The notes beneath the pieces were generated by a model. The model searched no databases. It had not been told where the DNA came from and worked only from the letters and a program-made list of their open reading frames with translations. Positions 2,421-63,251 of a stretch of 64,000 nucleotides of DNA are shown one piece after another. Source of the stretch: Escherichia coli (GTDB lineage Bacteria > Pseudomonadota > Gammaproteobacteria > Enterobacterales > Enterobacteriaceae); NCBI RefSeq assembly GCF_003018115.1, contig NZ_CP027457.1; one strand, 5' to 3'. The position numbers and the translations under genes are program-made. How positions within the stretch are numbered: the first letter of the stretch is position 1; every line of letters starts with the position of its first letter.

Positions 2421-3809
2421 TCAGATCCGGTCTTTCCACACCGTCTGGATATTACAGAATTCGTGTAAGCCGAAATGGGAAAGCTCACGACCAAAGCCAC
2501 TCTTTTTCACGCCACCAAAGGCCACTCGCGCGTCGCTGGCACAATAACCATTGATAAACACCCCACCGCATTCCAGACGTGCCGCCATCTGTCTGGCCTG
2601 TGTTTCGTCGGTGGTAAAAATGGTCGCTGAAAGGCCGAACTCACTATCATTAGCCAGTTCCAGCGCATGTTCTGCATCTTTCGCAATGGTGATTGCCGCA
2701 ACGGGGCCAAACATTTCTTCCCGAAACGCGGTCATTTCTGGGGTAACATTCGCCAGAACCGTTGGCGGATAGTAGTTACCTGCCCCAGCCATCTTTTCCC
2801 CGCCCAGTAACAAACGCGCACCCTGCGCCAGGGTTTTCTCCACCTGATGATGCAGCTCATCACGTAAATCAAAACGAGCCATTGGTCCGAGAGTGTTCTC
2901 TTCGTCACGGGGATCGCCCATTTTCAAGGCTGCCGCAGCTGCCACAAAACGTTCGGTAAATGCAGAAGCAATTCCCTCTTCGATAATAAAGCGTTTTGCC
3001 GCTGCACATACCTGTCCGGTATTCTGATAACGTCCGGCTACCGCCGCTTTAACCGCCAGTTCCAGATCGGCATCGTTAAGCACAATAAATGGATCCGAAC
3101 CGCCCAGTTCCAGTACGCATTTTTTCAGTGCCGCTCCAGCCTGTGCGCCAATAGCCGCTCCCGCACGAACACTTCCGGTCACCGTGACAGCAGCAATGCG
3201 CGAATCTTTAATCATTTGGCTGACACCGTCGTTGTCGGCATTCAGCCAGCCATATACGCCTTGTGGGATTCCCGCATCTTTAAACACCTGGGCAATGAGC
3301 TGAGCACAGCCCATCACATTCGGCGCATGTTTAAGTAAGTAACCGTTACCTGCAAGAATGATGGGAACAGCGCCACGCATCACCTGCCATAACGGAAAAT
3401 TCCACGGCATAATCGCCAGAATCGTCCCCAACGGTCGATACTCAATAACCGCCTGCTGATTTTCCACCAGCGTAGGTTCCGCCTTCAGCATTGCCGGACC
3501 ATGTTCTGCATACCAGTCACACAAATTCGCCGATTTCGCCACTTCAGCGCGCGCCTGGTTGATTGGTTTGCCCATTTCACGGGTGATCATTTGCGCCATT
3601 TCTTCGCTACGGGCGCGCAGAGCCTTACCGATATCACGCAGTTTTTCAGCACGATAATCTATATTTGTCTCGCGCCAGTCGCGAAAGCCTGCTGCCGCCA
3701 GCTGAAGTGCGTTTTCGATATCATCAGCACCAGCCCACGGCAGCACAGAAAGTTGTTCACCCGTGGCAGGATTTATCGAAATTGCATGAGTTGCCGGAGT
3801 AATGGTCAT
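2421..3809 (-). CDS. sad: NAD-dependent succinate-semialdehyde dehydrogenase
   Basis: 462-aa aldehyde dehydrogenase family ORF (catalytic Cys context QVCAAAKRF, ELGG motif); synteny with glsB and yneJ. Confidence 0.9.
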   Translation of the reverse strand: MTITPATHAISINPATGEQLSVLPWAGADDIENALQLAAAGFRDWRETNIDYRAEKLRDIGKALRARSEEMAQMITREMGKPINQARAEVAKSANLCDWYAEHGPAMLKAEPTLVENQQAVIEYRPLGTILAIMPWNFPLWQVMRGAVPIILAGNGYLLKHAPNVMGCAQLIAQVFKDAGIPQGVYGWLNADNDGVSQMIKDSRIAAVTVTGSVRAGAAIGAQAGAALKKCVLELGGSDPFIVLNDADLELAVKAAVAGRYQNTGQVCAAAKRFIIEEGIASAFTERFVAAAAALKMGDPRDEENTLGPMARFDLRDELHHQVEKTLAQGARLLLGGEKMAGAGNYYPPTVLANVTPEMTAFREEMFGPVAAITIAKDAEHALELANDSEFGLSATIFTTDETQARQMAARLECGGVFINGYCASDARVAFGGVKKSGFGRELSHFGLHEFCNIQTVWKDRI

Positions 3810-3909
3810 CGGGGTATCTCCTTTATGAGTTATGGTAAAAAGATACGCAGATTTACTCTTGCTTTAAAATGAATAATATTAAGCCACTTATTCACGAATC
3901 GAGAATATT

Positions 3910-4791
3910 ATGGATCTGACCCAACTGGAGATGTTCAACGCGGTTGCCGAAGCTGGCAGCATTACGCAGGCTGCAGCAATAGTGCATCGCGTGCCGTCGA
4001 ATCTCACTACCCGTCTACGCCAGCTGGAAACAGAACTGGGGGTAGATCTGTTTATTCGCGAGAATCAGCGTTTACGTCTATCTCCTGCCGGGCATAACTT
4101 TTTACGCTATAGCCAACAAATTCTCGCGTTAGTGGATGAAGCGCGGAGCGTTGTCGCTGGCGATGAGCCGCAAGGTTTATTTTCTCTGGGTTCGCTGGAA
4201 AGCACCGCAGCAGTTCGCATTCCGGCCACGCTGGCGGAATTCAACCGTCGTTATCCCAAAATTCAGTTTTCACTTTCCACCGGCCCTTCCGGCACTATGC
4301 TGGAAGGTGTGCTGGAGGGAAAACTTAATGCGGCGTTTATTGATGGACCCATTAACCATACTGCCATTGACGGGATACCGGTATACCGCGAGGAGCTGAT
4401 GATCGTCACGCCACAAGGTCATGCGCCAGTAATCCGTGCCAGTCAGGTTAATGGCAGTAACATTTATGCCTTCCGCGCCAATTGTTCGTATCGTCGCCAC
4501 TTCGAGAGCTGGTTTCATGCTGACGGTGCCGCTCCGGGAACTATCCATGAAATGGAGTCTTATCACGGAATGTTGGCCTGTGTAGTCGCAGGAGCAGGCA
4601 TTGCGCTTATTCCGCGCTCTATGCTGGAAAGTATGCCGGGGCATCACCAGGTTGAAGCGTGGCCGTTAGCTGAGCAATGGCGTTGGTTAACAACCTGGCT
4701 GGTCTGGCGTCGTGGTGCGAAAACACGTCCGCTCGAGGCATTTATTCAACTGCTGGATGTGCCTGACTCGGCAAGACAGGGATATCAATGA
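3910..4791 (+). CDS. yneJ: LysR-type transcriptional regulator
   Basis: 293-aa ORF with N-terminal LysR HTH ([23 protein letters not shown]), divergent from sad. Confidence 0.9.
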
Positions 4792-4868
4792 GCTATTTTT
4801 GATAGTTCTTGCGGCTAATATGCTCTATATAGTGATGTTCCGATGACTTATGACTATATGGGGCAAAT

Positions 4869-5984
4869 ATGGTTACGCCAGTAAGCATCAGCAATTACAT
4901 ATCTCTTCCTGATGATTTTCCCGTTCATAATATTGCACCGCAGGTAAAAGAAGTTTTAAAGGATTTTATTGATGCACTTAGTACAATAATATGTAATGAA
5001 GAGTGGCGCACATCTTTAAACATCAACTCAGCCACAAAAAAGATATTTAATAACCTTGACAACTTATCATATATTCAGAGGACTTCTTTTCGGGGTAACG
5101 ACACGCTATACAATGAAAAGGTTCAGTTTAAACTCACTTATCCCGCCAGGAATGGAAGACACAAAGAAAATATTGAATTTCAGGTAGTAATAAATTTAAG
5201 CCCTATTTATTTAGATAATTTCCGCCATGATGGAGAAATTAATATTTTTTGCGCTCCCAACCCAAAGCCTGTCACTATGGGGCGCGTATTTCAGACCGGC
5301 GTCGAGCGTGTGCTCTTTCTGTTTCTTAATGATTTTATTGAACAATTTCCAATGATCAACCCTGGCGTCCCCATCAAAAGAGCGCATACACCACATATTG
5401 AACCCCTGCCTCCGGATCACCATACCGCTGCAGATTACTTACGCCAGTTTGATTTGCTTGTCCTGAATTTTATCTCTCGCGGTAATTTTGTCATACTTCC
5501 CCGATTATGGAATAACTCTGAGGTTCACAGATGGTTCGTCAATAAAGATCCTAACTTGATCACCGCCATTTTCGACATAACGGACAGCGAATTAAAAGAG
5601 GATTTATTGCAAAGCCTGATGGATTCATTAGGTTCTAACAAACATGTACTACCCGAAGTCTGCATCTGCTTTTTATCCCTTTTAGCAGAACAAGATTTTC
5701 CACATTTTCAGGACTTGTTTTTATTTTTCGCCAATATGTTGTTACACTATCACCAATTTATGAATCCCAATGAAAGTGATTTGAATGACGTGTTGATGCC
5801 AGCATCATTAAGTGATGATAAAATTATCAAACATATGGCGCGCAAGACCCTCAAACTTTTTGTAAAAAATGAAACGCCGCCAAAAGTTACTCATGAAGAC
5901 CTGGTGAAAAACAGGCCTCGCTCCCCTGTCAGACCACCTATACCCGCAACCTCCAAAACGCCAGACCTCCCTGAACGTCATTAA
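4869..5984 (+). CDS. yneK: Uncharacterised protein YneK
   Basis: 371-aa ORF, AT-rich codon usage, position between yneJ and ydeA. Confidence 0.8.
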   Translation: MVTPVSISNYISLPDDFPVHNIAPQVKEVLKDFIDALSTIICNEEWRTSLNINSATKKIFNNLDNLSYIQRTSFRGNDTLYNEKVQFKLTYPARNGRHKENIEFQVVINLSPIYLDNFRHDGEINIFCAPNPKPVTMGRVFQTGVERVLFLFLNDFIEQFPMINPGVPIKRAHTPHIEPLPPDHHTAADYLRQFDLLVLNFISRGNFVILPRLWNNSEVHRWFVNKDPNLITAIFDITDSELKEDLLQSLMDSLGSNKHVLPEVCICFLSLLAEQDFPHFQDLFLFFANMLLHYHQFMNPNESDLNDVLMPASLSDDKIIKHMARKTLKLFVKNETPPKVTHEDLVKNRPRSPVRPPIPATSKTPDLPERH

Positions 5985-19479: not shown

Positions 19480-19575
19480 ATGCTGGGTAATATGAATGTT
19501 TTTATGGCCATACTGGGAATAATTTTATTTTCTGGTTTTCTGGCCGCGTATTTCAGCCACAAATGGGATGACTAA
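19480..19575 (+). CDS. mgtS: Small membrane protein MgtS (YneM), 31 aa
   Basis: Translation MLGNMNVFMAILGIILFSGFLAAYFSHKWDD; below the ORF-track size cutoff; GGAGG RBS upstream. Confidence 0.85.
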   Translation: MLGNMNVFMAILGIILFSGFLAAYFSHKWDD

Positions 19576-19602
19576 TGAACGGAGATAATCCCTCACCTAA
19601 CC

Positions 19603-19642
19603 GGCCCCTTGTTACAGTTGTGTACAAGGGGCCTGATTTTTA
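19603..19642 (+). terminator. Rho-independent terminator downstream of mgtS
   Basis: GC-rich hairpin GGCCCCTTGT...ACAAGGGGCC followed by TGATTTTTA. Confidence 0.6.
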
Positions 19643-19650
19643 TGACGGCG

Positions 19651-19755
19651 AAAAAAAACCGCCAGTAAACCGGCGGTGAATGCTTGCATGGATAGATTTG
19701 TGTTTTGCTTTTACGCTAACAGGCATTTTCCTGCACTGATAACGGATCGTTGACA
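19651..19755 (-). ncRNA. mgrR: Candidate PhoP-dependent sRNA MgrR; boundaries approximate
   Basis: Minus-strand PhoP-box-like direct repeat aGTTTAagctccGTTTAa at plus 19781-19800, then about 100 nt to a minus-strand terminator (CCGCC...GGCGG plus T8, plus 19651-19676). Sequence identity not verified from memory. Confidence 0.45.
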
Positions 19756-19793
19756 CAGTAGCATCAGTTTTCTCAATGAATGTTAAACGGAGC

Positions 19794-27838: not shown

Positions 27839-29122
27839 TTACAGACTTCTGGAAGGTTGCGCAGCTCTTACAACACGCGGTTGATCTTCCGCAGCGTCTT
27901 CCAGCGCACTTAAATCACGGTCTTTCACTTCTGGCATTTTCAGTGCAGAGATTAAACCAATCACTGAATATGCCATGATCATAATGGCGATTGGATACCA
28001 GGATTCCGTCATGGTGCAGAAAATACCTGCCAGGATAGGACCAAAACCGGAAGCGATAAGACCACCAATTTCTTTTGAAATAGCCATCCGGGTAAAGCGG
28101 TTTTTACAGCCGAACATTTCTGCCATGGTAATGTTTTCCAGAGCAAATAATCCCAGCACCGCACAGTTATGAATCACAATCAGTGCAACCATAATGGTGC
28201 TCGGGGCATAGCTTTTATCTACGATGATAGAAAGCATTGGCCACGCCAGCACAATCGCGGAGGTATTCATAATAATATACGGGATCCGGCGACCAATTTT
28301 ATCGGATAACCAACCAAGCAACGGAATGGTCATAAAGCCGAGAATCGAACTGATCATCAATGCATCTGTTGGAATTGCTTTGTTAAACAATAACGTCTGT
28401 ACTAAATAGCCTGCAAGGAAAGTCTGAATTAAACCGGAGTTACCCGCCTGACCAAAACGCAGCCCTGTTGCCAGCCAGAAGGATTTGCTCTGGAACATGC
28501 TACCAGCAGGTGCAGGTTTTGCTGTCGGTTGGTTGCTGTCATTAACCTTCTCAAAGACCGGGCTTTCTTTCAGATTCATACGCAACCAGATAGCAAAGAC
28601 CATCACGACAACGCTCGCCAGGAACGGTATACGCCATCCCCACGCCAGCAGTTCCTCTTTACTGAGAATGAAGAACATAAAGGCCCAGATTGCCGTTGCG
28701 CTTAAGGTTCCGCAGTTAGTTCCCATAGCCACAAATGAGGAGATAATTCCGCGCTTACCTTTTGGCGCATATTCCGCCAGCATCGTACCGGCACCGGAAA
28801 TTTCCGCACCTGCACCCAACCCCTGAATAATACGCAGCGTCACCAGCAAGATGGGGGCAAAAACACCAATCTGTGCATAGGTCGGTAACACACCAATTAA
28901 GGTGGTACAGATCCCCATCATGGTGATGGTAATAAAGAGCACTTTTTTACGCCCTATTCTGTCGCCCATTTTGCCGAAAATAAATGCTCCGACAATACGC
29001 GCCACATAACCTGCACCGTAGGTTCCCATTGCCAAAATTAACGCCATTGCCGTTGATGATTCAGGAAAAAATATTTCATGAAACACTAACGCTGCGCCGA
29101 GCGAATATAACTGGAAATCCAT
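27839..29122 (-). pseudogene. ydfJ: ydfJ MFS (metabolite:H+ symporter family) gene, 5'-truncated at the prophage junction
   Basis: Translation starts already inside the conserved TM1 region (DFQLYSLGAALVFHEIFFP... aligns to about residue 35 of ProP/ShiA-type transporters); sequence right of 29122 is AT-rich and unrelated. Confidence 0.8.
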
Positions 29123-29726
29123 AATTCACAGGTGTTTTTTCCCATCCTGTGGTTTCCTTGGCGTTTTCTAGGTTTTTTCAGATAGTTGCATTTTTTTAAA
29201 AAGCATCCTAAGTTCGATCTCAGTGTCTATCTGGGGCCTATTTCTGTCCCATATATGCCCCAAAAAAACTCCCCAACAGATAAGTAGTTTTTTCATGGAT
29301 TTATGCGTAAAATCAAGAACGGCTGGAAATCATTCAATACTCACACTATCGAAAAATTTACCAGCCAATCGCAGCACGTTCTTGCATAAGGCGTGTCTGC
29401 GGTTTTTCAACTATTCAGATACATCACTCCCATCACATTCATTCCTCCGCATCAAAGGCATATAGGCTATATCACCTTGATATTTTTCTTTTTCAGATAA
29501 AAACTGTTATCTATGTATACTTTTAAACCCAATCCGTGTAGAGTCTCTGCATAAGATAGTTTGCAGTTGCCGCTTCAGCTTGCGCCATAAACCGCCTGAT
29601 TTTTGCTGCCACCTGTTAGCATTCCTGTATACCTGAAACGACAATGTTTATCTACGAACTTTAAGAACACCCAAGATAAAAATTGTCAACTATATCATAT
29701 ATAACACATTACTAATTCGAGGCTAT

Positions 29727-29840
29727 ATGAACAGCATACTGATAATCACATCTCTCCTTATCATATTCAGCATTTTTAGTCATGCCCTAATAAAATTAGG
29801 GATTGGCATATCCAATAACCCAGACAAAACCGATGTATAA
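29727..29840 (+). CDS. Candidate 37-aa small hydrophobic protein upstream of ydfK
   Basis: ATG with GAGG RBS; translation [37 protein letters not shown] has one predicted TM helix. No homology evidence. Confidence 0.3.
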
Positions 29841-29908
29841 GTCAACATATCCTGAATCAGACATACAATATCGCAATGAAAATCAATAATATTTTAAGGA
29901 ATATCTTC

Positions 29909-30142
29909 ATGAAATCAAAAGACACCCTAAAGTGGTTCCCTGCGCAGCTTCCTGAAGTAAGAATTATCCTAGGGGATGCTGTAGTGGAAGTAGCAAAACA
30001 GGGAAGACCTATCAATACCAGAACATTGCTTGATTACATTGAAGGAAACATAAAGAAAAAATCATGGCTGGATAACAAAGAATTATTACAAACAGCGATA
30101 TCAGTTCTTAAAGACAACCAAAATTTAAATGGTAAAATGTAA
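29909..30142 (+). CDS. ydfK: Qin prophage small protein YdfK (YnaE paralogue)
   Basis: MKSKDTLKWFPAQLPEVRIILGDAVVEVAKQGRP...; 77 aa from internal ATG of the 88-aa ORF. Confidence 0.8.
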   Translation: MKSKDTLKWFPAQLPEVRIILGDAVVEVAKQGRPINTRTLLDYIEGNIKKKSWLDNKELLQTAISVLKDNQNLNGKM

Positions 30143-31146: not shown

Positions 31147-31722
31147 CTACGGCAGTGCTGGCCATTCAATATCCTGTGCAGTTGACGTATCAACACGGTT
31201 CAGCAATACCCGATACTTTTTCCATGCTTCCAGCAACGAGATTTCTTCCTCCGTTGCAATTTCCAGATCTGCAGCATCCTGAAGCGGCGCAATATGCTCA
31301 CTGGCTACCTGCATCAGGTTGTTTTTTGTTTCTTCCGCCTCCCGGATCCGGAACAGTTTTTCTGCTTCCGTATCCTTCACCCAGGCTGTGCCGTTCCACT
31401 TCTGAAACTCCCCTTCCGGCGATAACCAGGTAACATTTTCCGGTAACGGACCGAGTTCAGAAATAAATAACGCGTCGCCGGAAGCCACGTCATAAACCGT
31501 TTTACCCCGATGATCTTCAACGAGATGCCACGATGACTCATCACTGTTGAAAACAGCCACGAAGCCAGCCGGAATATCTGGCGGTGCAATATCGGTACTG
31601 TTTGCTGGCAGACCTGTATGAGGCGGAATATATGCATCACCTTCACCAATAAATTCATTAGTTCCGGCCAGCAGATTATAAATTTTTATGGTCCGTGGTT
31701 GTTCACTCATTCTGAATGCCAT
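31147..31722 (-). CDS. tfaQ: Tail fibre assembly protein
   Basis: 191-aa [37 protein letters not shown]...; start overlaps stf stop. Confidence 0.9.
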
Positions 31723-34700
31723 TATGCAAGCCTCACAATATAGTTAAATGCGATGTTTTTGACGGTGTTTTCCGCGTTACCAGCAGCGTTAACGGTGATG
31801 GTGTGTCCATGTGAACCAATCGCAACGGAGTGCGTATGAGCACCAATACCGACAGTATGTGCATGTGCGCCTGCGCTTGCAGCAGTGCCGGACAGCGAGT
31901 GGGTATGAGCACCATCTGATGATGTCTTCCCTGCATTACGAGTCTGGCCACTACCGCTTGTTGTGCTCATAATCCCCGCGCTTAGATTTGAAATCGCGGT
32001 ATAACCATTAGGGAAAATGCTCGTGTTCGTGCCACCAAATGCACCGGAACTCTTGTGTTGGTGCGCACCGGCACTATTTGCGGTCCCGCTAATACTATGG
32101 GTATGCGCCCCGGTGTTATTCGTGGATTTGGTTCCGTAATCAAACGACGATGTGGTTTTCGTCCCCAAATCCGTACTGGATGCGCTGGCGCTGTGGGTGT
32201 GCGATTTAATGCCGTCCTGTTCCTGAGATAATACGGCCCGACCACTGGCGGGCTTGCCCTTAATCGTCCAGCCACGCATATCAGGGATCACGCCTGACGG
32301 ATAAGCAACTGCAAGTTTCGGGTATGCAGATTTGTCAAAAGTCTGCCCCTGCATCAGGGCATAACCAGACGGAACGGTATCTGATGGCCACGGGATTGGT
32401 GCACCGACTGGATAAAACTCTGCAGGAGGATGAGCCGAGGTGTAAAGCTGCGCCCACGGCGACCAGTTTGCGTCGGTCGTATCCCGTCGTGAACGAATAA
32501 ATGCCGGAGCATGAGCACCGCTTGTACCACTCCAGCCGATGAGTAACTCACCTTCGCCAACGGCTGTCATCCCTTTCAGGTGAATGATATTTCCATACGC
32601 TGTTGGATATCCGTTGTTATACACCTCGTATAACTCAAGACCTGCTGCCCCCTGCGTATTGTCTGTCAGCGCGGTTACCCGACCTTTTGAAGCCAGATTA
32701 ACTGATGATACTGCTGTTCCACCTGACGGTAACGCCCCGATCTCTGATGCCGTTGGCTTATTTCTGGAGTTATAGTCCCTTCGCCAGCCAGGTGAATAAT
32801 CTGTTCCGTGATTAATATAGGTAAACTGGGCGTTAGTTGTTCCACCACCAGTGGAGGTGGTCGGTGTGGTAATGCGGATCGTCATCGCTGACTTTATCCC
32901 CATTACTTCAATGACAGCTCCGGCGAGATGAATATTACCGCAGTCAGTATCAGTAATGATTTTATTATTGCCATAAGACCAGGAACCCTTGCACATCCAG
33001 TATGGATGGTTAAATGCTCCCTGAGAATCCAGCCACTCGATAAACTGTGCAGTCGTCCAGTTTCCTGTTGTTGTGCTTACTGACCCACCGAAGGCACGGC
33101 AGGCACCAATATTTTTCGTAAAGGTATCTTTGCCAGGGATATCCGCACCGTTCTGATCTTTCTGCAGACGTTTCTCAGCATTGTCATTGGCTGCTTTTAC
33201 TGCCTTTGGTGTCGCGGCAAGCGTTTCAGACGTGCTGTTGGTCGCGCTGCTTAGCTGGATTATCCCTTTCTGTGCTGTCGTTGCATCCTGTGCGGTGTAT
33301 TTCCCGTTAGCCAGGTCATACGCGGCCTTAACGGCTTTTGGTGTTGCCGCCAGTGACTCGGAAGTGCTGTTAGTCGCACTACTGAGCTGTACTATCCCCT
33401 TTTTCGTCGTGCTCGCATCCTCAAGCGCCACGGCGGATGCAATATCCTCTGCCCGTTTTGCTGCTGTCTCGGCGCGCGTTGCTGCGGATTCTGCCGTACT
33501 TTTGCTCTGAGCTGCCGCCGTCGCACTGCCAGCAGCCTCTGTCGCCTTCGTGGATGCCGTCGTGGCGCTGCTCTTCGCTGCTGACGCTTGTCTGGTCGCC
33601 TCATCTTTTGAAGCAGACGCCGATGATGCCGATGACGCCGCCGAACTGGCTGACGATGCGGCAGCCGTTTTTGAGGATTCTGCGCTGGTTTCCGACGCTT
33701 TCGCGTTCGTTTCGGATGTCTTCGCTGCGGAAGCAGACCTCGCTGCTGCGCTGGCCTGTTCAGTGGCTTCGCCAGCCTTCGTTGTGGCTGTTGAAGCAGA
33801 CGATGCGGCGCTTTCTGCCGATTTTCCGGCGGCGGTGGCACTGGCTGAGGCCTGCCCGGCACTTGTTGACGCTGCACTGGCAGACGACGCAGCCGCTGTT
33901 TTTGAGCCTGCCGCAGCCGAGGCGCTCTGTCCCGCTGCCGTTTCAGAAGACCTGGCGTTCGTCTCTGACGTTTTTGCCGCCTTCGCGGAATTTCCTGCCG
34001 CTGTTGCCGAGGAAGCTGCGCTACTGGCGCTCGAGGATGCGTTCGTTTCTGATGATTTTGCCGCCTCTTTTGAAGCCGACGCATCCCGGGCTGAGGTGGC
34101 AGCTTCTGACGCTTTCGTGGTCGCGGTGGATGCAGAAGTGGCTGCTGATTGTTGTGACGCTGCAGCATTCGTTTCTGACGTTTTCGCGGCACTGGCACTG
34201 GTAGCTGCCGCGCTTTTTGAGGACTCTGCAGCGGCAGCACTTTTTGATGCTTCAGTGGCCTTTGTTGATGCCGTTCCTGCGCTGGAAGACGCTGACTGAG
34301 CCGACGAAGCGGCCTGTCCGGCTGACGTGCTGGCTGCGCGTGCTGAGCCTGCAGCATCAGTCGCATGGGTTGCCGCCTCACGGGCAGATGTGCCGGCATC
34401 GCCGGCTGACTTCTTCGCGGCTGCCGTGTTCTGTGCCACCGCGGACGCGTTACGCGCCACCTCTTCCACCATCAGTTCAAAACGGCGCAGAGCCTCCGGA
34501 CGGGCATCATCCTCCGTCATGGCACCGAGAAAATCATTCAGCGTACCGGGTCGGGAATCTTCATACACGGTGATGGTCCCGGCATGTGACGGCGGGAATC
34601 CTTCCACCAACAGAATAACGCTGTACTGACCGTACTCAACGTCCATGCTGTAACGCCCGGCTTCATCCGGATTTTCTGAGGCCAGCGTGTTCACCACCAC

Positions 34701-34796
34701 CGCGGTGCTGTTACGTTTTGCTTTCAGCTGGATTGTGCAGTTCTGTACCGGTTTTCCTGTGCCGTCTTTCAGTACACCTGAAATCTTTACTGCCAT
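31722..34796 (-). CDS. stf: Side tail fibre protein, lambda Stf-like, full length (about 1024 aa)
   Basis: N-terminus [26 protein letters not shown]... and C-terminus ...[24 protein letters not shown] match my recollection of lambda Stf; track start is a GTG two codons upstream of the ATG. Long Ala/Ser/Thr-rich central repeats; His-x-His motifs near C-terminus. Confidence 0.9.
33180..34330. repeat. Low-complexity Ala/Ser/Thr-rich coding repeats inside stf (GC-rich, open in several frames)
   Basis: Reiterated ...SAA(S/T)SA.../KTSETNA units and duplicated [15 protein letters not shown](S/T)[11 protein letters not shown] block; generates spurious ORFs on both strands. Confidence 0.8.
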
Positions 34797-34805
34797 ATTC
34801 ACCCC

Positions 34806-34833
34806 ACAAAAAAGCCCGCCTGAACAGGCGGGC
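34806..34833 (-). terminator. Rho-independent terminator downstream of lom
   Basis: Hairpin GCCCGCC-TGTTCA-GGCGGGC followed by a T-run on the minus strand. Confidence 0.6.
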
Positions 34834-34860
34834 TGTCATAACACTGTGTTACCTGGCTAA

Positions 34861-35460
34861 TCAGAACTTATAACCGACACCCACGATGAAACCGTCAGTG
34901 CGCCAGTCGCCACTGCCGGAGCCTTCATAAGCAATATCAATGGCCACGGATTCGGTCGGGTTAAACTGCACGCCAGCTCCCCACGCCAGAGACGTGTTGC
35001 TGTGGCGACCGTCATCACTTCCGGTCAGCACGTCGTGCGTTTTCCCCTTGTTGTCAGTTACGCGGAGATAATCCCCGGAGAAAGTCGACACACGGCTGTA
35101 AGCCATACCCGCCATCGCATACGCGCTGAACCATTCATTCACGCGCACAGACGGCCCCACCATCACGCTGAACCAGCGGTTACGCACGGAATCTTCATGC
35201 CAGCGGGTATCGCTGTAACGGGTAAGCTGGCGATTCTTGTCTCCTGCATAGCTGAATGACGTCACCAGCCCCAGTGTGTCCGTAAACTCATAACGGTATT
35301 TCACGTTAATCCCGTTAAGATCATCGCTGCCGGGAACGTTCGTCGAGGCATGAAGATACCCCGCGCTCAGCGTGGACTGATGTTCAGATGCCCATGCAGG
35401 CGCACCGGATACGGCCAGACAAATGGCTGCGGACAAAATGGCGGCATAAAGTTTACGCAT
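34861..35460 (-). CDS. lom: Lom/Ail-family outer-membrane beta-barrel protein
   Basis: 199-aa ORF with signal peptide and C-terminal ...[15 protein letters not shown] as in lambda Lom. Confidence 0.9.
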
Positions 35461-35484
35461 AATTACCTCTCGCTTTTCTGCAAT

Positions 35485-35508
35485 AAAAAAGGCACCATTT
35501 CTGGTGCC
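35485..35508 (-). terminator. Rho-independent terminator downstream of J
   Basis: Hairpin GGCACCA-GAAA-TGGTGCC followed by a T-run on the minus strand. Confidence 0.55.
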
Positions 35509-35529
35509 CTTATATGGGTTATAACAATT

Positions 35530-38500
35530 TCAACGAATACTGATGCCGGAAGCGGCTTTTTTGGTCACAATCACCGTACAGTCGGTGATATTGCCTGCCC
35601 CCTGATTGCCTTTCTGGAAAATCTTAAACTCCAGAGTGACGCTACCACCACCACTAGGCATATCAATAACTGCACTGTAACTACCGGGAATGGCCCCTTT
35701 AGTTTCTCTGGATGCGATTAATACGCCGTTTTTGCGAACTTCAAAACCATAACCCGTGTATCGCGTGCCTCCTGGGTTATTTCCGCTCCCCGGATCGTCA
35801 TACGCTATACCGTTAAAAATAATGGGCGGAATAATAATCTGGCGGTCAAAGTTATGATCATCGCTGATGGTGACTGTAACCGTACCGTTTGGTGTTTCCG
35901 TGTTACCCCACGTACCGACTTTTTTCGGGAAGGCTTTTGATACAGCTTTAACGAAATCCCCTCTGACCTGGGTCGCCTCCAGCATGCCCTTAATCGTACA
36001 GTTCTGGTTAATCGTGACATTGTTGAGCGTTCCTGAGTTCGCATTCACACTACCACTGATATCCGCATTTTTAGCGGTCAGCTTTCCGTCTGATGTCAGG
36101 GAAAATACCGGAGGACTGCCACCGCTGGTAATGGTGGGGGCCGTCAGGCGTTTCAGGAACACTTCATTCATGAATATCTGATCGCCCTGACCAACAAACA
36201 TCGGCTTTGTGTTGCCATTCGCAGGATTAATCATCGCAATCCTGTCTGCTGCCAGCAGCACCTGACTCTGCATGCCGTCAGGGGTGTTCTCAATACCGGC
36301 ACCGATACCCGCAATATAAAGGCGTCCGTCCTGCATCTGCTGCAGCTTCACTGCCCACATGCTGTTCAGGTTATTATTTGTATCAACCTGAACCTTCTGT
36401 ATCTGCTGGATTGCCGCACTCTGGTCTTCCAGTTTCTTATTGACGGTCTGTGTTATTTCATTGCTGACATCCGTTATGGACGTCCTGATTTCAGTCAGGT
36501 CAGGCGCAAGCTGACCGTTATCAATCTGCGTCCACAGCTCCTGAGCCAGATGGGTTTTCCCTATCTCGCCTTTGAAAAAATCCAGATAGCCTGATGCATC
36601 ATCACTCGGCTGACCGACAGCCTCCACGAATGCCGATTTGCCAACGGTGTTCACACTGCGAACGTAAAAATAATAATCATGGCCCGGTTTGATATTGATA
36701 CTGGCGGCTATCCAGTACAGTGCCGTACCAAGATAACGCGCGCTGGTTTCAACCTGCCTGATATCCGCAATCCGTTTTTCCGAGAACCAGAACTCAAACT
36801 GTACCGTCGGGTCATAAACCGCAAGATGCGGCGTGGCGGTTATCTGAAAATAGCCCGGCGTCAGCTCAATCCGCGACGGCGCTGCCGGTGCGGCAATCCG
36901 GAACGATACCGACGCCGGATCGCCCTGCTGCCCCCACGCATTTACTGCCCGGACTGTCAGCCTGTAGTTCCCCAGAGCCAGTTGTGTGAAGCGGTAAGTG
37001 GTTTCCGTCGTCCGGGCCGTGCTGACCAGCCGCTCACGGCCGTCATCCGCTGCCACGGTCAGGCGAAGCAGGAAGCTCACGCCCTTCACCACCTTCGGCG
37101 TGTCCCAGCGCGCCAGCACCTGGTATTCCCCGCTGTCTGCGGTGACTTCTGCGGTCAGGTGCTGCACCGCTGGCGGCGTGACACCATTTACCGTGCCGCT
37201 CTGGTCGCCGTCAAAGTGCGCCCCGTTATCCACGATGGCCTCTTTTTCCGGTACATGCTGCACGGCGGTGATGGCATACGTGCCGTCGTCGTTCTCACGG
37301 ATACTCACGCAGCGGAACAGGCGCTGGCGCAACGTCGACAGCTTCAGCCCCCATACGCTGTATTCAGCAACGCCGTCAGGAACACGGCTCACTTTCACCT
37401 TCACGCCGTCGGTGACGGACTGAACCTCCACGCTGACCGGACTCCCCTGCCCGTCAACCAGGCTTATCAGCGTGGTGCCGGAAGATGGCAGCGTGATTTC
37501 ACGGTCGAGCGTCAGCGTCCGGGTCTGGCTGTTTACCGCCAGCACGCGCCCGCCGGTGCGGATACCGGCATAGTCATCATCGCAGATTTCAATGACATCG
37601 CCCGGTACATGGCGAAGCCCTTCGGCACCCACGCTGAAGTCCACGGTCTGCGTTTCCAGCAGTTCTGTTTTAATCAGCCACAGCCCGGCGCGGTGTGCCT
37701 GCCCCCGGCTGGTACAGCCAAAAGCATCCATCTTCGTGACGTTACGACCGTAACGGGCAATGGCCTGCGTGTCCTCCACAAGCTCTGTCGCCGTCTCCCA
37801 GCCGTTATTCGGGTCAATCCAGTTCACCTCAACGGCATTATGGCGGTCCTTCAGGGCGCTGAAGCTGTAGCGGAACGGCGCACCATCATCCGGCATCACC
37901 ACATTACTGCGGTTATAGGTCCACACCTTATCCGACGGTCGGTCCTGCACGAACGTCAGCGTCTGCCCGTTCCATACCGGCATACAGCGCATCGCAGAGC
38001 AGAAATCACTGAGCACATCCCACGCCTTGCGCTGTGTGGTCAGGTACGCATTACAGGTGATGCGCGGCTCTGTGCCGCCAAAACCGTCCGGCACCGACTG
38101 ATCGCAATGCTGGCCGATGACATACAGCGCCCATTTGTCCACATCCGCCGCACCAAGACGTTTCCCCATGCCGTAGCGCGGATGGGTCAGCATATCCCAC
38201 AGACACCAGGCCATGTTGTTGCTGTATGCTGGCTTAAACGTTCCGTCCCAGATACCGCTGTATTGCCGCGTCTGCGGGTTATAGTTCGACGGCACCTGCA
38301 GAATGCGCCCGCGCAGATGATAATTACGGCTCACCTGCTGGCTGCCGAACTGCTCCGAATCCACCTGCACGCCGACCAGTGCCGTGTTCGGGTAGCACTG
38401 TTTCACATCGATGATTTCGGTGTATGACGACCAGAGCGTTTTGTTCTGCAGCTGGTCTGTGGTGCTGTCCGGCGTCATCCTGCGCATCCGTATATTGAAC

Positions 38501-39027
38501 GGGCGCGGCGGCAGGTTACCCACCACCACCGAGGCCAGATACTGCGAGGTGGTTTTGCCCTTAATGGTGATGTCTTTTTCCGTCACCCAGCCACCATTAC
38601 GCTGGATCTGAACCAGCAGGCGGACTTCCGACGGATTCCGGTCCCCCTTTGAGGTGGTTTCCACCAGTGCCTGCACGCCGAAGGTAAAGCGCAGACGGTC
38701 GATGTTTGCAGACGTAATGGTGCGGGTGATCGGCGTGTCATATTTCACTTCCGTACCCAGCACCGTCTCGGAGCCGGAGGATTCAAACCCCTCCGGCGGT
38801 GTCTGCTCCTGCTCACCGGCACGGAACACCACCGTGACACCGGAGATGTTGGTATTCCCCTCAGTGTCCAGCACCGGCGTACTGTTCAGCAGCACGCTTT
38901 TTAATCCATCCACCGGACCTTCAACCGGCCCTTCGCTGATGGCATCGATCACACTCAGCAGCTGCGTGGACTTCAGGTTGTCCTTCGCTTCGCGCGGGGT
39001 ATGCCCCTTACTGCTGCCTTTACCCAT
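35530..39027 (-). CDS. J: Tail tip host-specificity protein J (1165 aa), lambda J-like with divergent C-terminal region
   Basis: N-terminal about 790 aa match my recollection of lambda J ([34 protein letters not shown]...); central fibre and last roughly 250 aa differ. Confidence 0.9.
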
Positions 39028-56160: not shown

Positions 56161-56431
56161 GATGTTACCGTAGTATGTGAGTATCCATCGAATAGACACC
56201 AAGCAAAAAAGCTCCCGAAGGAGCCTTCATTTTCACTTTTTTAAATCCAACGACAGACGGCTGGCATTTAAGTATTGTGAAATATTATCAAATGTAATCA
56301 TCATTGATTTACAAAAGATACATTTTGCCCCGAAAGGATTCATGTCAGAAACATCAAAAGATGATGTTCTATACTGGGAACCATGACAACACGGGCATCT
56401 AAAGTGAATATGGTTTGTAATATTGTCTACC

Positions 56432-56644
56432 TCAAAGCGCCACTACATGAACAGCGGCAGGACCTTTAGGTCCGTTCTCAATACCAAATTCAACTTCCTG
56501 ATTCTCAGTTAATGTTTTGAAATCGTTGCTCTGAATTGCTGAGAAATGGACAAACACATCTTTGCTGCCATCTTTCGGCGTGATGAAACCAAAACCTTTT
56601 TCAGGGTTAAACCATTTCACTAAACCAGTCATTTTGTTAGACAT
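56432..56644 (-). CDS. cspI: Cold-shock protein (CspA family)
   Basis: 70-aa [41 protein letters not shown]... with RNP1/RNP2 motifs. Confidence 0.85.
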
Positions 56645-57006
56645 AATTATTACCTTTTGAAGAAATTAGCCCTTGGGCAGAATGGTCCGAAAAAAAATAT
56701 CAGAGAGAAAAACCAACAAGGAAATCTCAAGAGGTACAAATAATAAAATTATAACAATGACTGCTTCAGATAAATTTGTAACAAACCAGAACACCATTAA
56801 CGCATGATTAACCACCCATAGCAAGGATTACTTTTGTAAAGAAAAACACAGCAATGAAAGAATAGCTTTATTTATTAATAAAACGTGTCATTCTGATTAA
56901 GACCTTTTATCTTACCCTTAAGATTTCAGGAATTTTGGCTCATGGAAGAGTCCTTTTTATTTAAATTTTACATTCCGCGATGTAAATGTTCCGATTTAAT
57001 ATTACC

Positions 57007-58952: not shown

Positions 58953-59315
58953 TTGATTTTATTAGTAACAAGTATTTTTTATATTTTAATAATATATTTA
59001 AAGCAGATAATAAAAAACCCGCCTGAGCGGGTTTGAGATTGTGGTGCTTTTTGTGGGAGTCATCCACTTACGCACTTTGTTTTGCCATGCCAGCAGTTAG
59101 CTTCTGCTGTAAAACTATTCATGCAGCAAACCTGCACTTCACCACAATGGTTAGCATACTTTTCCTGATTAAGATTTTGCCAAATATGCTAGCCATTGTT
59201 TCATGTATTGGACCTCCTTACTTTTTATTAAAGAGATCCAATATTCACTACTCTGTCCGTATCTCTACTCAGGCATCAGCCTTCTTCGTTATCGTATACA
59301 GACGAGCGATGAATT

Positions 59316-59531
59316 TTAATCAGTAATGATGACATTTGCTGCTGCAGGACCTTTAGCACCACTCTCTATAGAGAAGGTAACCTTTTGACCTTCAAATAAG
59401 GTTCGATAATTATCATTCTGAATCGCAGAAAAATGCACAAACACATCTTTACTACCATCAACAGGAGAAATAAAGCCGAAACCTTTATCAGCGTTAAACC
59501 ATTTTACTAAACCAGTCATTTTATTTGACAT
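59316..59531 (-). CDS. cspB: Cold-shock protein (CspA family)
   Basis: 71-aa [41 protein letters not shown]... Confidence 0.85.
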
Positions 59532-59831
59532 TCTACATTCCTTAACTTGAGCCTTTCGGCATAAATGGTTTGCATAACAGAAACGACTTCGTACTTAATT
59601 GGAGAGACTCAAAGAAGGAATAAGTGAATAACACCTGAAATGAGAACTGCTTTAGTAAACTACTTCGTATATCGTCTGTTCTTCAAACCGACGCAATCAT
59701 TAACGCATAGTTGAACATATGAAGCAATGTTTATTTTAGACATCCAGCCATCTTCAACCCCATCAAAAAACTATAGCTTTCTTCAGGAACGTGTGTATAG
59801 TGCGCCAAGTTATCAGTATTAAGGAATTTTT

Positions 59832-60098: not shown

Positions 60099-60188
60099 AT
60101 GAATAACCCCGTCTGTCTTGATGACTGGTTGATTGGCTTTAAAAGCTTATGCTGTACTTTGGCCGTAATAGCTCTGCTAATAATATAA
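60099..60188 (+). CDS. Candidate 29-aa small membrane protein downstream of cspF
   Basis: ATG with GGAGAG RBS 5 nt upstream; [29 protein letters not shown] has a hydrophobic C-terminal helix. No homology evidence. Confidence 0.35.
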
Positions 60189-63095: not shown

Positions 63096-63251
63096 TTACT
63101 CCTCAGGTTCGTAAGCTGTGAAGACAGCGACCTCCGTCTGGCCGGTTCGGATTCGTACCTCGCAGAGGTCTTTCCTCGTTACCAGTGCCGTCACTATGAC
63201 GGTTAAACAGATGACGATCAGGGCGATTAACATCGCCTTTTGCTGCTTCAT
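63096..63251 (-). CDS. hokD: Hok-family membrane toxin HokD (RelF), 51 aa
   Basis: Minus-strand translation MKQQKAMLIALIVICLTVIVTALVTRKDLCEVRIRTGQTEVAVFTAYEPEE; below ORF-track cutoff. Confidence 0.85.
   Translation of the reverse strand: MKQQKAMLIALIVICLTVIVTALVTRKDLCEVRIRTGQTEVAVFTAYEPEE

Follow-up and report, generated by a model that had tools for sequence, protein, structure and literature searches.

The window, the whole stretch of DNA analysed here, comprises 64,000 nucleotides of Escherichia coli (contig NZ_CP027457.1) and carries one end of a Qin-type prophage. The junction between prophage and host, an approximate position for the att core region, was placed at 29111–29122 (no strand assigned), from the onset of homology to the free phage mEp460 (29111) to the end of the truncated host gene ydfJ (29122); the location at a prophage end given by the initial annotation is thus correct, and the frame under study is the first gene inside that end. 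Specifically, translation of the window gives an open reading frame on the plus strand from 29727 to 29840, which opens with the ATG at 29727, the first start codon past the upstream stop, and closes with a TAA at 29838–29840, the 37 codons in between being those that the initial annotation had claimed. The Shine-Dalgarno sequence GAGG, also part of that claim, can be read from the sequence at 29719–29722 (+), with a 4-nt spacer to the ATG. A 68-nt spacer (29841–29908, +), which includes the ribosome-binding region of the next gene (AAGGA), leads to ydfK (29909–30142, +), the 77-aa product of which is annotated as 'cold shock protein YdfK'; the proposed ydfK neighbour, about 70 nt downstream and in the same orientation, is therefore found where expected. 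A second copy of the small gene was searched for in the 64-kb window and none was found. The region of the two genes is nearly identical to that of K-12 (99.8% over 1.2 kb). Past tfaQ, the minus strand of 31722–39027 holds long ORFs of two kinds that the K-12-like locus (L001) lacks, one tail-fibre (1026 aa), the other J-like (1165 aa).

The same 37-codon frame is present in K-12 MG1655, where it is annotated as b4748, 'protein YnfT' (YP_009518787.1), at 1632890–1633003. The two show 0 nucleotide differences and have the same neighbours, between the ydfJ remnant and ydfK at the Qin end. In addition, RefSeq places at exactly the coordinates of our ORF a gene named ynfT, coding for a 'YnaM/YnfT family protein' (WP_120795384.1); this protein is annotated in about half of the complete E. 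coli genomes, and a 1-kb query covering the locus matches 2808 of 5426 of them. K-12 harbours a twin of ynfT in the Rac prophage, namely ynaM (b4744, UniProt YNAM_ECOLI). Profile searches gave 96.2 bits with the Pfam model PF23676 (YnaM), covering residues 1–37 of 37, and 63.9 bits with the NCBIfam model NF041477 (YnaM/YnfT), the curated cut-offs of which are 27 and 35 bits, respectively, as well as a match to PHROG phrog_35882 with an E value of 3e-20. The traits of the YnaM/YnfT family, that is a length of about 37 aa, an N-terminal hydrophobic helix and a conserved 12-residue tail motif, are all present. In conclusion, with a probability of roughly 0.9, the frame is the already annotated E. 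coli small membrane protein gene ynfT (CDS 29727–29840, 37 codons plus TAA, nucleotide-identical to b4748) and not a discovery. The initial annotation had described it as a candidate 37-aa micro-protein with a single transmembrane (TM) helix; a translated single-TM protein it is, while its status as a candidate did not stand, the gene being already annotated.

The product has been detected in published work. VanOrsdel et al. 2018 (PMC6001520, Table 1) list the exact sequence and report that the chromosomally SPA-tagged products of both ynfT and its twin ynaM were detected by immunoblot. Their two entries lie one between ynaE and ttcC, which corresponds to ynaM, and the other between ydfJ and ydfK, at 1632890–1633003, a gene then named ynfQ and since renamed ynfT (PMC6001520). 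Therefore, epitope tagging and Ribo-seq, the two experimental checks suggested for the frame, already have positive published outcomes, the former for both ynfT and ynaM and the latter with tetracycline Ribo-seq (PMC6001520). As for the amount of protein, the majority of the small proteins newly detected are less abundant than YnaM-SPA (Weaver et al., bioRxiv 511675). The same study observed no start-codon density for YnaM with retapamulin or Onc112 (bioRxiv 511675). The ynfT and ynaM copies of K-12 are identical over their first 23 nt and carry only 3 differences, all synonymous and in third position; the start peak of YnaM may be lost because, over this identical 23-nt stretch, short footprints would map to both copies and, as the identity of the copies leads us to infer, may have been discarded. 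That the frame arose by chance in intergenic, AT-rich DNA, a reading which ynfT invites by being short and AT-rich, would also fit the missing start peak (bioRxiv 511675) and the fact that no mass-spectrometry peptides have been reported; on the other hand, it is contradicted by the immunoblot detection of the tagged protein (PMC6001520) and by the match to the curated models PF23676 and NF041477.

The initial annotation had also predicted one TM helix, and the presence of a single hydrophobic helix is borne out by both hydropathy analysis and structure prediction. The most hydrophobic 19-residue window of YnfT corresponds to residues 4–22, with a Kyte-Doolittle mean of 2.52. Among the 298 ATG-initiated ORFs of 25–60 aa in the whole window, only 4, YnfT included, attain a value of at least 2.4, and the other three include two known peptides, YnfS and HokD. 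The AlphaFold2 model, built with 15 natural variants, consists of one helix spanning residues 2–29 and followed by a disordered tail, with a pLDDT above 90 over residues 1–20. On the DNA, the predicted helix maps to 29730–29813 (+), with a hydrophobic core of residues 4–22 and K23 at the C-terminal edge of this core, and the conserved C-terminal motif, residues 25–36, maps to 29799–29834 (+); it is a polar, probably disordered tail which includes NNPDKTD.

Other hydrophobic short frames were observed elsewhere in the window. The one at 60099–60188 (+) is the known small protein YnfS of the Qin region, and a 51-aa Hok-type peptide (HokD-like), likewise a known feature of that region, is encoded at 63096–63251 (−). 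A very hydrophobic ORF of 43–52 aa at 56666–56824 (−) lies inside an Rfam cspA-type thermoregulator (56405–56790, 112.8 bits), in the 5' UTR of a cspI-like gene at 56432–56644; this ORF has probably arisen by chance, the leader being structured.

Conservation of the frame was assessed across Qin, Rac and other loci, and in all of them the frame was kept. The 2807 ranked E. coli records were sampled at even intervals, and a YnaM/YnfT gene is annotated in all 39 near-full-length matches of that sample (95–100% identity). In a collection of 15 billion proteins, about 1000 contigs or more were counted for each of three variants, two that are common in E. coli and one that is the main form in Salmonella, while the two frameshifted forms of YnfT are singletons; a frame disrupted in closely related prophages, which the initial annotation had named as the outcome that would speak against it, was thus encountered only in singletons. 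The most diverged copies are those of Salmonella, found in phage 118970_sal3 and in prophages, with 77–80% nucleotide identity, and in these too the GAGG, the start and stop codons and the 37-codon length are all retained; the GAGG in fact shows no variation among the copies of E. coli, phages and Salmonella.

The pattern of substitutions points in the same direction. Comparison of ynfT with the Salmonella copy of locus L007 by the Nei-Gojobori method gave 17 synonymous and 9 non-synonymous differences (sd=17, nd=9) and a dN/dS of 0.05, with the differences distributed over the three codon positions as 4/5/17 (binomial p=2e-6). The dN/dS was 0.08 against the copy of Salmonella phage sal3, and ydfK gave 0.08 in the same E. 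coli–Salmonella comparison. These ratios show, at the level of aligned coding sequences, a purifying selection on YnfT as strong as that acting on its neighbour ydfK. The five alternative frames at ynfT are all closed by stops in both E. coli and Salmonella. Across 15 aligned E. coli and Salmonella variants of YnfT, 21 of the 37 alignment columns are invariant, and I26, G27, S29, N30, N31, P32, K34 and D36 are the same in 15 out of 15. The common forms of E. coli and Salmonella do not differ in residues 25–36, and between E. coli and phage sal3 the 12-residue C-terminal motif has accumulated 5 silent changes and 0 amino-acid changes. The third-position periodicity with low dN/dS, and the retention of RBS, start, stop and length at 77–80% nucleotide identity, argue further against a chance frame; taken together with the immunoblot and the family models, they exclude it, and we give that reading next to no weight. 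In conclusion, we regard it as close to certain that YnfT is a genuine translated protein gene. Reading of the raw sequence alone had therefore recovered a genuine 37-aa gene overlooked by classic gene finders for two decades, although current knowledge of what this ORF is has been neither overturned nor extended.

The signals around the transcription unit were then considered. At 29367–29410 (+) lies a terminator-like hairpin (−18.1 kcal/mol, z −3.08) followed by a U-run (UUUUU), about 260 nt inside the prophage end, where the conservation shared by Qin, Rac, S88 and 2H10 begins. Judging from its sequence and placement, this hairpin probably delimits the ynfT transcription unit on the upstream side, and it would put the promoter of ynfT-ydfK between 29410 and 29726. 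The lambda tI/sib terminator lies beyond attP, downstream of int, and by position the hairpin may be likened to this element. In the interval downstream, a weak sigma-70-like site (TTCAGA-18-TATACT, 29492–29521, +) matches 9 of 12 consensus positions and is a possible ynfT-ydfK promoter; it is conserved in four E. coli copies, as is all the sequence around it. A promoter scan of the ynfT region returned 7 sites, none of them convincing, compared to 5.1 expected from shuffled sequence, and the SELEX-predicted ydfK promoter TTCCCA-16-GATAAT could not be located by eye between 29100 and 29730. The scan for intrinsic terminators detected none between ynfT and ydfK.

Rfam models gave no significant match at the ynfT ORF. 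A sub-threshold match to CssrB, a Shigella sRNA, covers 29370–29507 (−) with 25.3 bits, compared to a gathering score of 76, and an E value of 0.01; its well-matched part is the hairpin 29367–29410 read on the opposite strand, and the likeness suggests a prophage end of this kind as a possible origin of CssrB. Three Rfam families were found at gathering threshold in other parts of the window, namely STnc560, an Hfq-binding sRNA (19569–19782, −), IS009 (31181–31379, −, inside tfaQ) and a second cspA thermoregulator (59300–59692, −).

Published expression data associate both genes with the cold-shock regulon. In one RNA-seq data set, ynfT is up 5.7x and ydfK 5.3x, together with cspI, cspG, cspB, ymcE and deaD (PMC13058169), and the YdfK protein is higher at low temperature and decreases when the temperature is raised from 23 to 37 C (PMC12890032). 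Prematurely terminated, Hfq-binding 5'-leader transcripts of ydfK and ynaE are mentioned in passages of PMC5089854 and PMC4152368 that refer to Raghavan 2011. The ynfT ORF lies inside this reported ydfK 'leader', and given such short 5'-leader transcripts much of the ynfT RNA may end before ydfK. From the joint rise of the two genes and the temperature response of YdfK, it is somewhat more likely than not that ynfT and ydfK are co-transcribed or co-regulated in a cold-shock-type response.

The same arrangement raises the question of whether ynfT matters mainly in cis, as a leader peptide, a uORF or a riboregulator RNA controlling the cold induction of ydfK, with the peptide as a by-product. 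Its position 68 nt upstream of a cold-induced gene and on the same strand, the prematurely terminated Hfq-binding leader transcripts referred to in the above passages (PMC5089854, PMC4152368), and the long regulatory leaders that are typical of cold-shock genes, two cspA thermoregulators being present in the window, are all compatible with such a role. However, the amino acids of YnfT are constrained along the whole length of the protein, with a dN/dS of 0.05–0.08, a constraint for which a uORF acting purely in cis has no need. Moreover, the sole notable hairpin of ynfT, a 7-bp stem inside the E. coli gene (CCCTAAT/ATTAGGG), does not survive in Salmonella, although the amino acids do; the constraint is therefore on the protein and not on an RNA structure. 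The predicted folding of the region is not better than that of shuffled sequence (z −0.61), neither a terminator/antiterminator pair nor an Rfam match was found for it, and the tagged protein is stable (PMC6001520). RNA structure was thus rejected as the cause of ynfT conservation and a role mainly in cis appears unlikely; a dual role of ynfT, as a protein and as a cis-acting leader, is possible.

With ynfT read as a protein gene, we examined the company in which it travels. The segment shared between E. coli and Salmonella comprises both genes with the spacer between them and, ahead of ynfT, about 50 nt; it was delimited by a blastn match to Salmonella phage 118970_sal3 (29674–30146, +, 78.7% identity), has a size of about 470 nt, and the similarity is confined to these coordinates, being lost downstream of ydfK. 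The Salmonella spacer measures 74 nt and is about 70% identical, with conserved blocks at the RBS of ydfK and directly past the stop codon of ynfT. In every locus examined, ydfK/ynaE follows ynfT/ynaM after 68–74 nt. The GC content of this two-gene cassette is about 0.33, compared to 0.45–0.54 in the flanks.

In the lambdoid phages of E. coli (Qin, Rac, mEp460 and 2H10), the cassette is flanked by attP/int on one side and by the pin invertase and tail-fibre genes on the other, while in Salmonella it is found in P2-like (SopE-phage-type) prophages, adjoining a tail-fibre assembly gene (Caudo_TAP). In strains S88 and A1_136 the module occupies another chromosomal site, adjoining prfC. The deposited phages mEp460 and 2H10 contain an intact but unannotated ynfT ORF (at 4128–4241 of locus L005 and 3127–3240 of locus L006, respectively). 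An exhaustive search of 1.84 billion representatives returned 4 YnfT clusters, all of the Escherichia type, the names of which span the Enterobacteriaceae, mainly Escherichia and Salmonella. As to the Salmonella loci L007–L011, at about 2900–5450, ynaM-ynaE lies just downstream of the T3SS effector cargo sopE or nleG, some of the loci also have rexAB, and a 133-aa ORF without a Pfam match lies directly upstream of ynaM-ynaE. Locus L011 has, in addition, a distant YnaE paralogue (27% identical) without an adjacent YnaM.

Being att-proximal beside tail-fibre genes, AT-rich and present in unrelated phage backbones, ynfT-ydfK is placed and behaves, in the compared genomes, like a mobile phage accessory ('moron') cassette. 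The tagged products of ynfT and ynaM show that the cryptic prophages of K-12 express the small gene (PMC6001520). Morons and lysogenic-conversion cassettes are an established concept, of which the sopE cassette of SopE-phage is an example. The likeness extends to the same location between tail-fibre genes and att, to the AT-rich composition in unrelated phage backbones and, in Salmonella, to the position beside the sopE/nleG cargo. The y-ome paper counts ynfT among the uncharacterised genes. In conclusion, the constraint on ynfT, its constant pairing with ydfK and its presence in two unrelated phage families, alongside virulence cargo, recommend that the two genes be studied as a pair, and at low temperature.

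To gain indications on the partner, we modelled YdfK with AlphaFold2. The model, based on a 6-sequence alignment and with a pLDDT of 71, comprises three helices, and its best Foldseek match is E. coli YmgB/AriR (2oxl_A; prob 1.00, TM 0.68/0.83, rmsd 2.0 A, E 0.046), the next match after 2oxl having an E value of 1.9. At the sequence level, the YcgZ_fam profile scored 15.9 bits against a cut-off of 80 (E 0.012), hhalign comparisons of YdfK with YcgZ, AriR and YmgA gave co-linear matches with probabilities of 4–27%, and a sequence search of the PDB with YdfK returned no match. The predicted fold suggests that YdfK is possibly linked, at a distance, to the AriR/YmgB connector proteins, which we take as a lead and not as membership of that family.

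On these grounds, a mechanism can be proposed for the pair. YnfT would be inserted in the inner membrane, K23 and the tail probably facing the cytoplasm, and would work jointly with YdfK in the role of a small membrane partner or modulator; at low temperature, the YnfT-YdfK pair would then alter a process of the lysogen that is associated with the membrane. Insertion of YnfT into the inner membrane and a partnership with YdfK is a tentative proposal, to which we assign somewhat less than even odds. A bolder version depicts ynfT-ydfK as a mobile cold-responsive module in which YnfT would tether or direct an AriR/YmgB-like YdfK to an inner-membrane sensor, such as a histidine kinase of the Rcs or of a different two-component pathway, and this we consider improbable. 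If it were true, temperate phages of two unrelated families would rewire the envelope or biofilm signalling of the lysogen at low temperature.

A different function, namely that of a type I toxin-like membrane peptide of the Hok, Ldr, TisB or PepG1 type, held by an antisense RNA and serving prophage stabilisation or dormancy, has to be weighed against the proposed partnership. YnfT is small, very hydrophobic and prophage-borne, and a real toxin, HokD, is among the strongly hydrophobic short ORFs of the window; there is also a match to the PepG1 model with 13.1 bits and an E value of 0.055, but this score is far under the cut-off of 70. An antisense transcript could be driven by one promoter-like site on the minus strand, from 29918 to 29891, matching 9 of 12 consensus positions; its −10 element, however, is not conserved in Salmonella, and neither a minus-strand terminator nor an Rfam RNA was found at the ynfT locus. 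Binding of the ydfK leader RNA to Hfq, mentioned in a passage of PMC4152368, would suit a toxin under RNA control; nevertheless, the conserved partner of ynfT is a downstream protein gene and not an overlapping RNA gene, and the PADLOC search for defence systems gave no match. In addition, the SPA-tagged protein is comparatively abundant in cells growing normally in LB, unlike tightly repressed toxins (bioRxiv 511675, PMC6001520). Therefore, we judge a toxin function very unlikely.

Comparison with known systems helps to place the gene and its proposed function. With respect to YnfT/YnaM of K-12, the protein is identical, the DNA is identical to ynfT and the position at the Qin end is the same; only the surroundings differ from the K-12 Qin prophage, the prophage of the window being more complete. 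With the Hok/Gef, Ldr, TisB and PepG1 toxins YnfT shares a short length, hydrophobicity and a prophage location, but no significant sequence match and no antitoxin RNA were found for it, and the cell tolerates it at readily detectable levels. YdfK, for its part, resembles the cold- and blue-light-induced connectors YcgZ, YmgA and AriR (YmgB) in its size of about 77 aa, its association with cold and its three predicted helices, and shares with them the segment (I/V)LGxAV...G..(I/L)(N/S)...L, while its sequence scores with respect to YcgZ/AriR are far below the family thresholds; the ycgZ operon is not known to include a small TM protein.

Finally, the proposed partnership finds its counterpart in the small inner-membrane regulators AcrZ, MgrB, MgtS, SafA and KdpF. 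YnfT has no sequence relationship with these proteins and is phage-borne and restricted to Escherichia and Salmonella, and the comparison is one of analogy. It belongs nonetheless to the same size class, consists like them of one TM helix with a short polar tail, and was detected by the same SPA-tagging approach. AcrZ, MgrB, MgtS, SafA and KdpF work by binding a larger membrane protein and, by analogy, this would be the most likely mode of action of YnfT as well.
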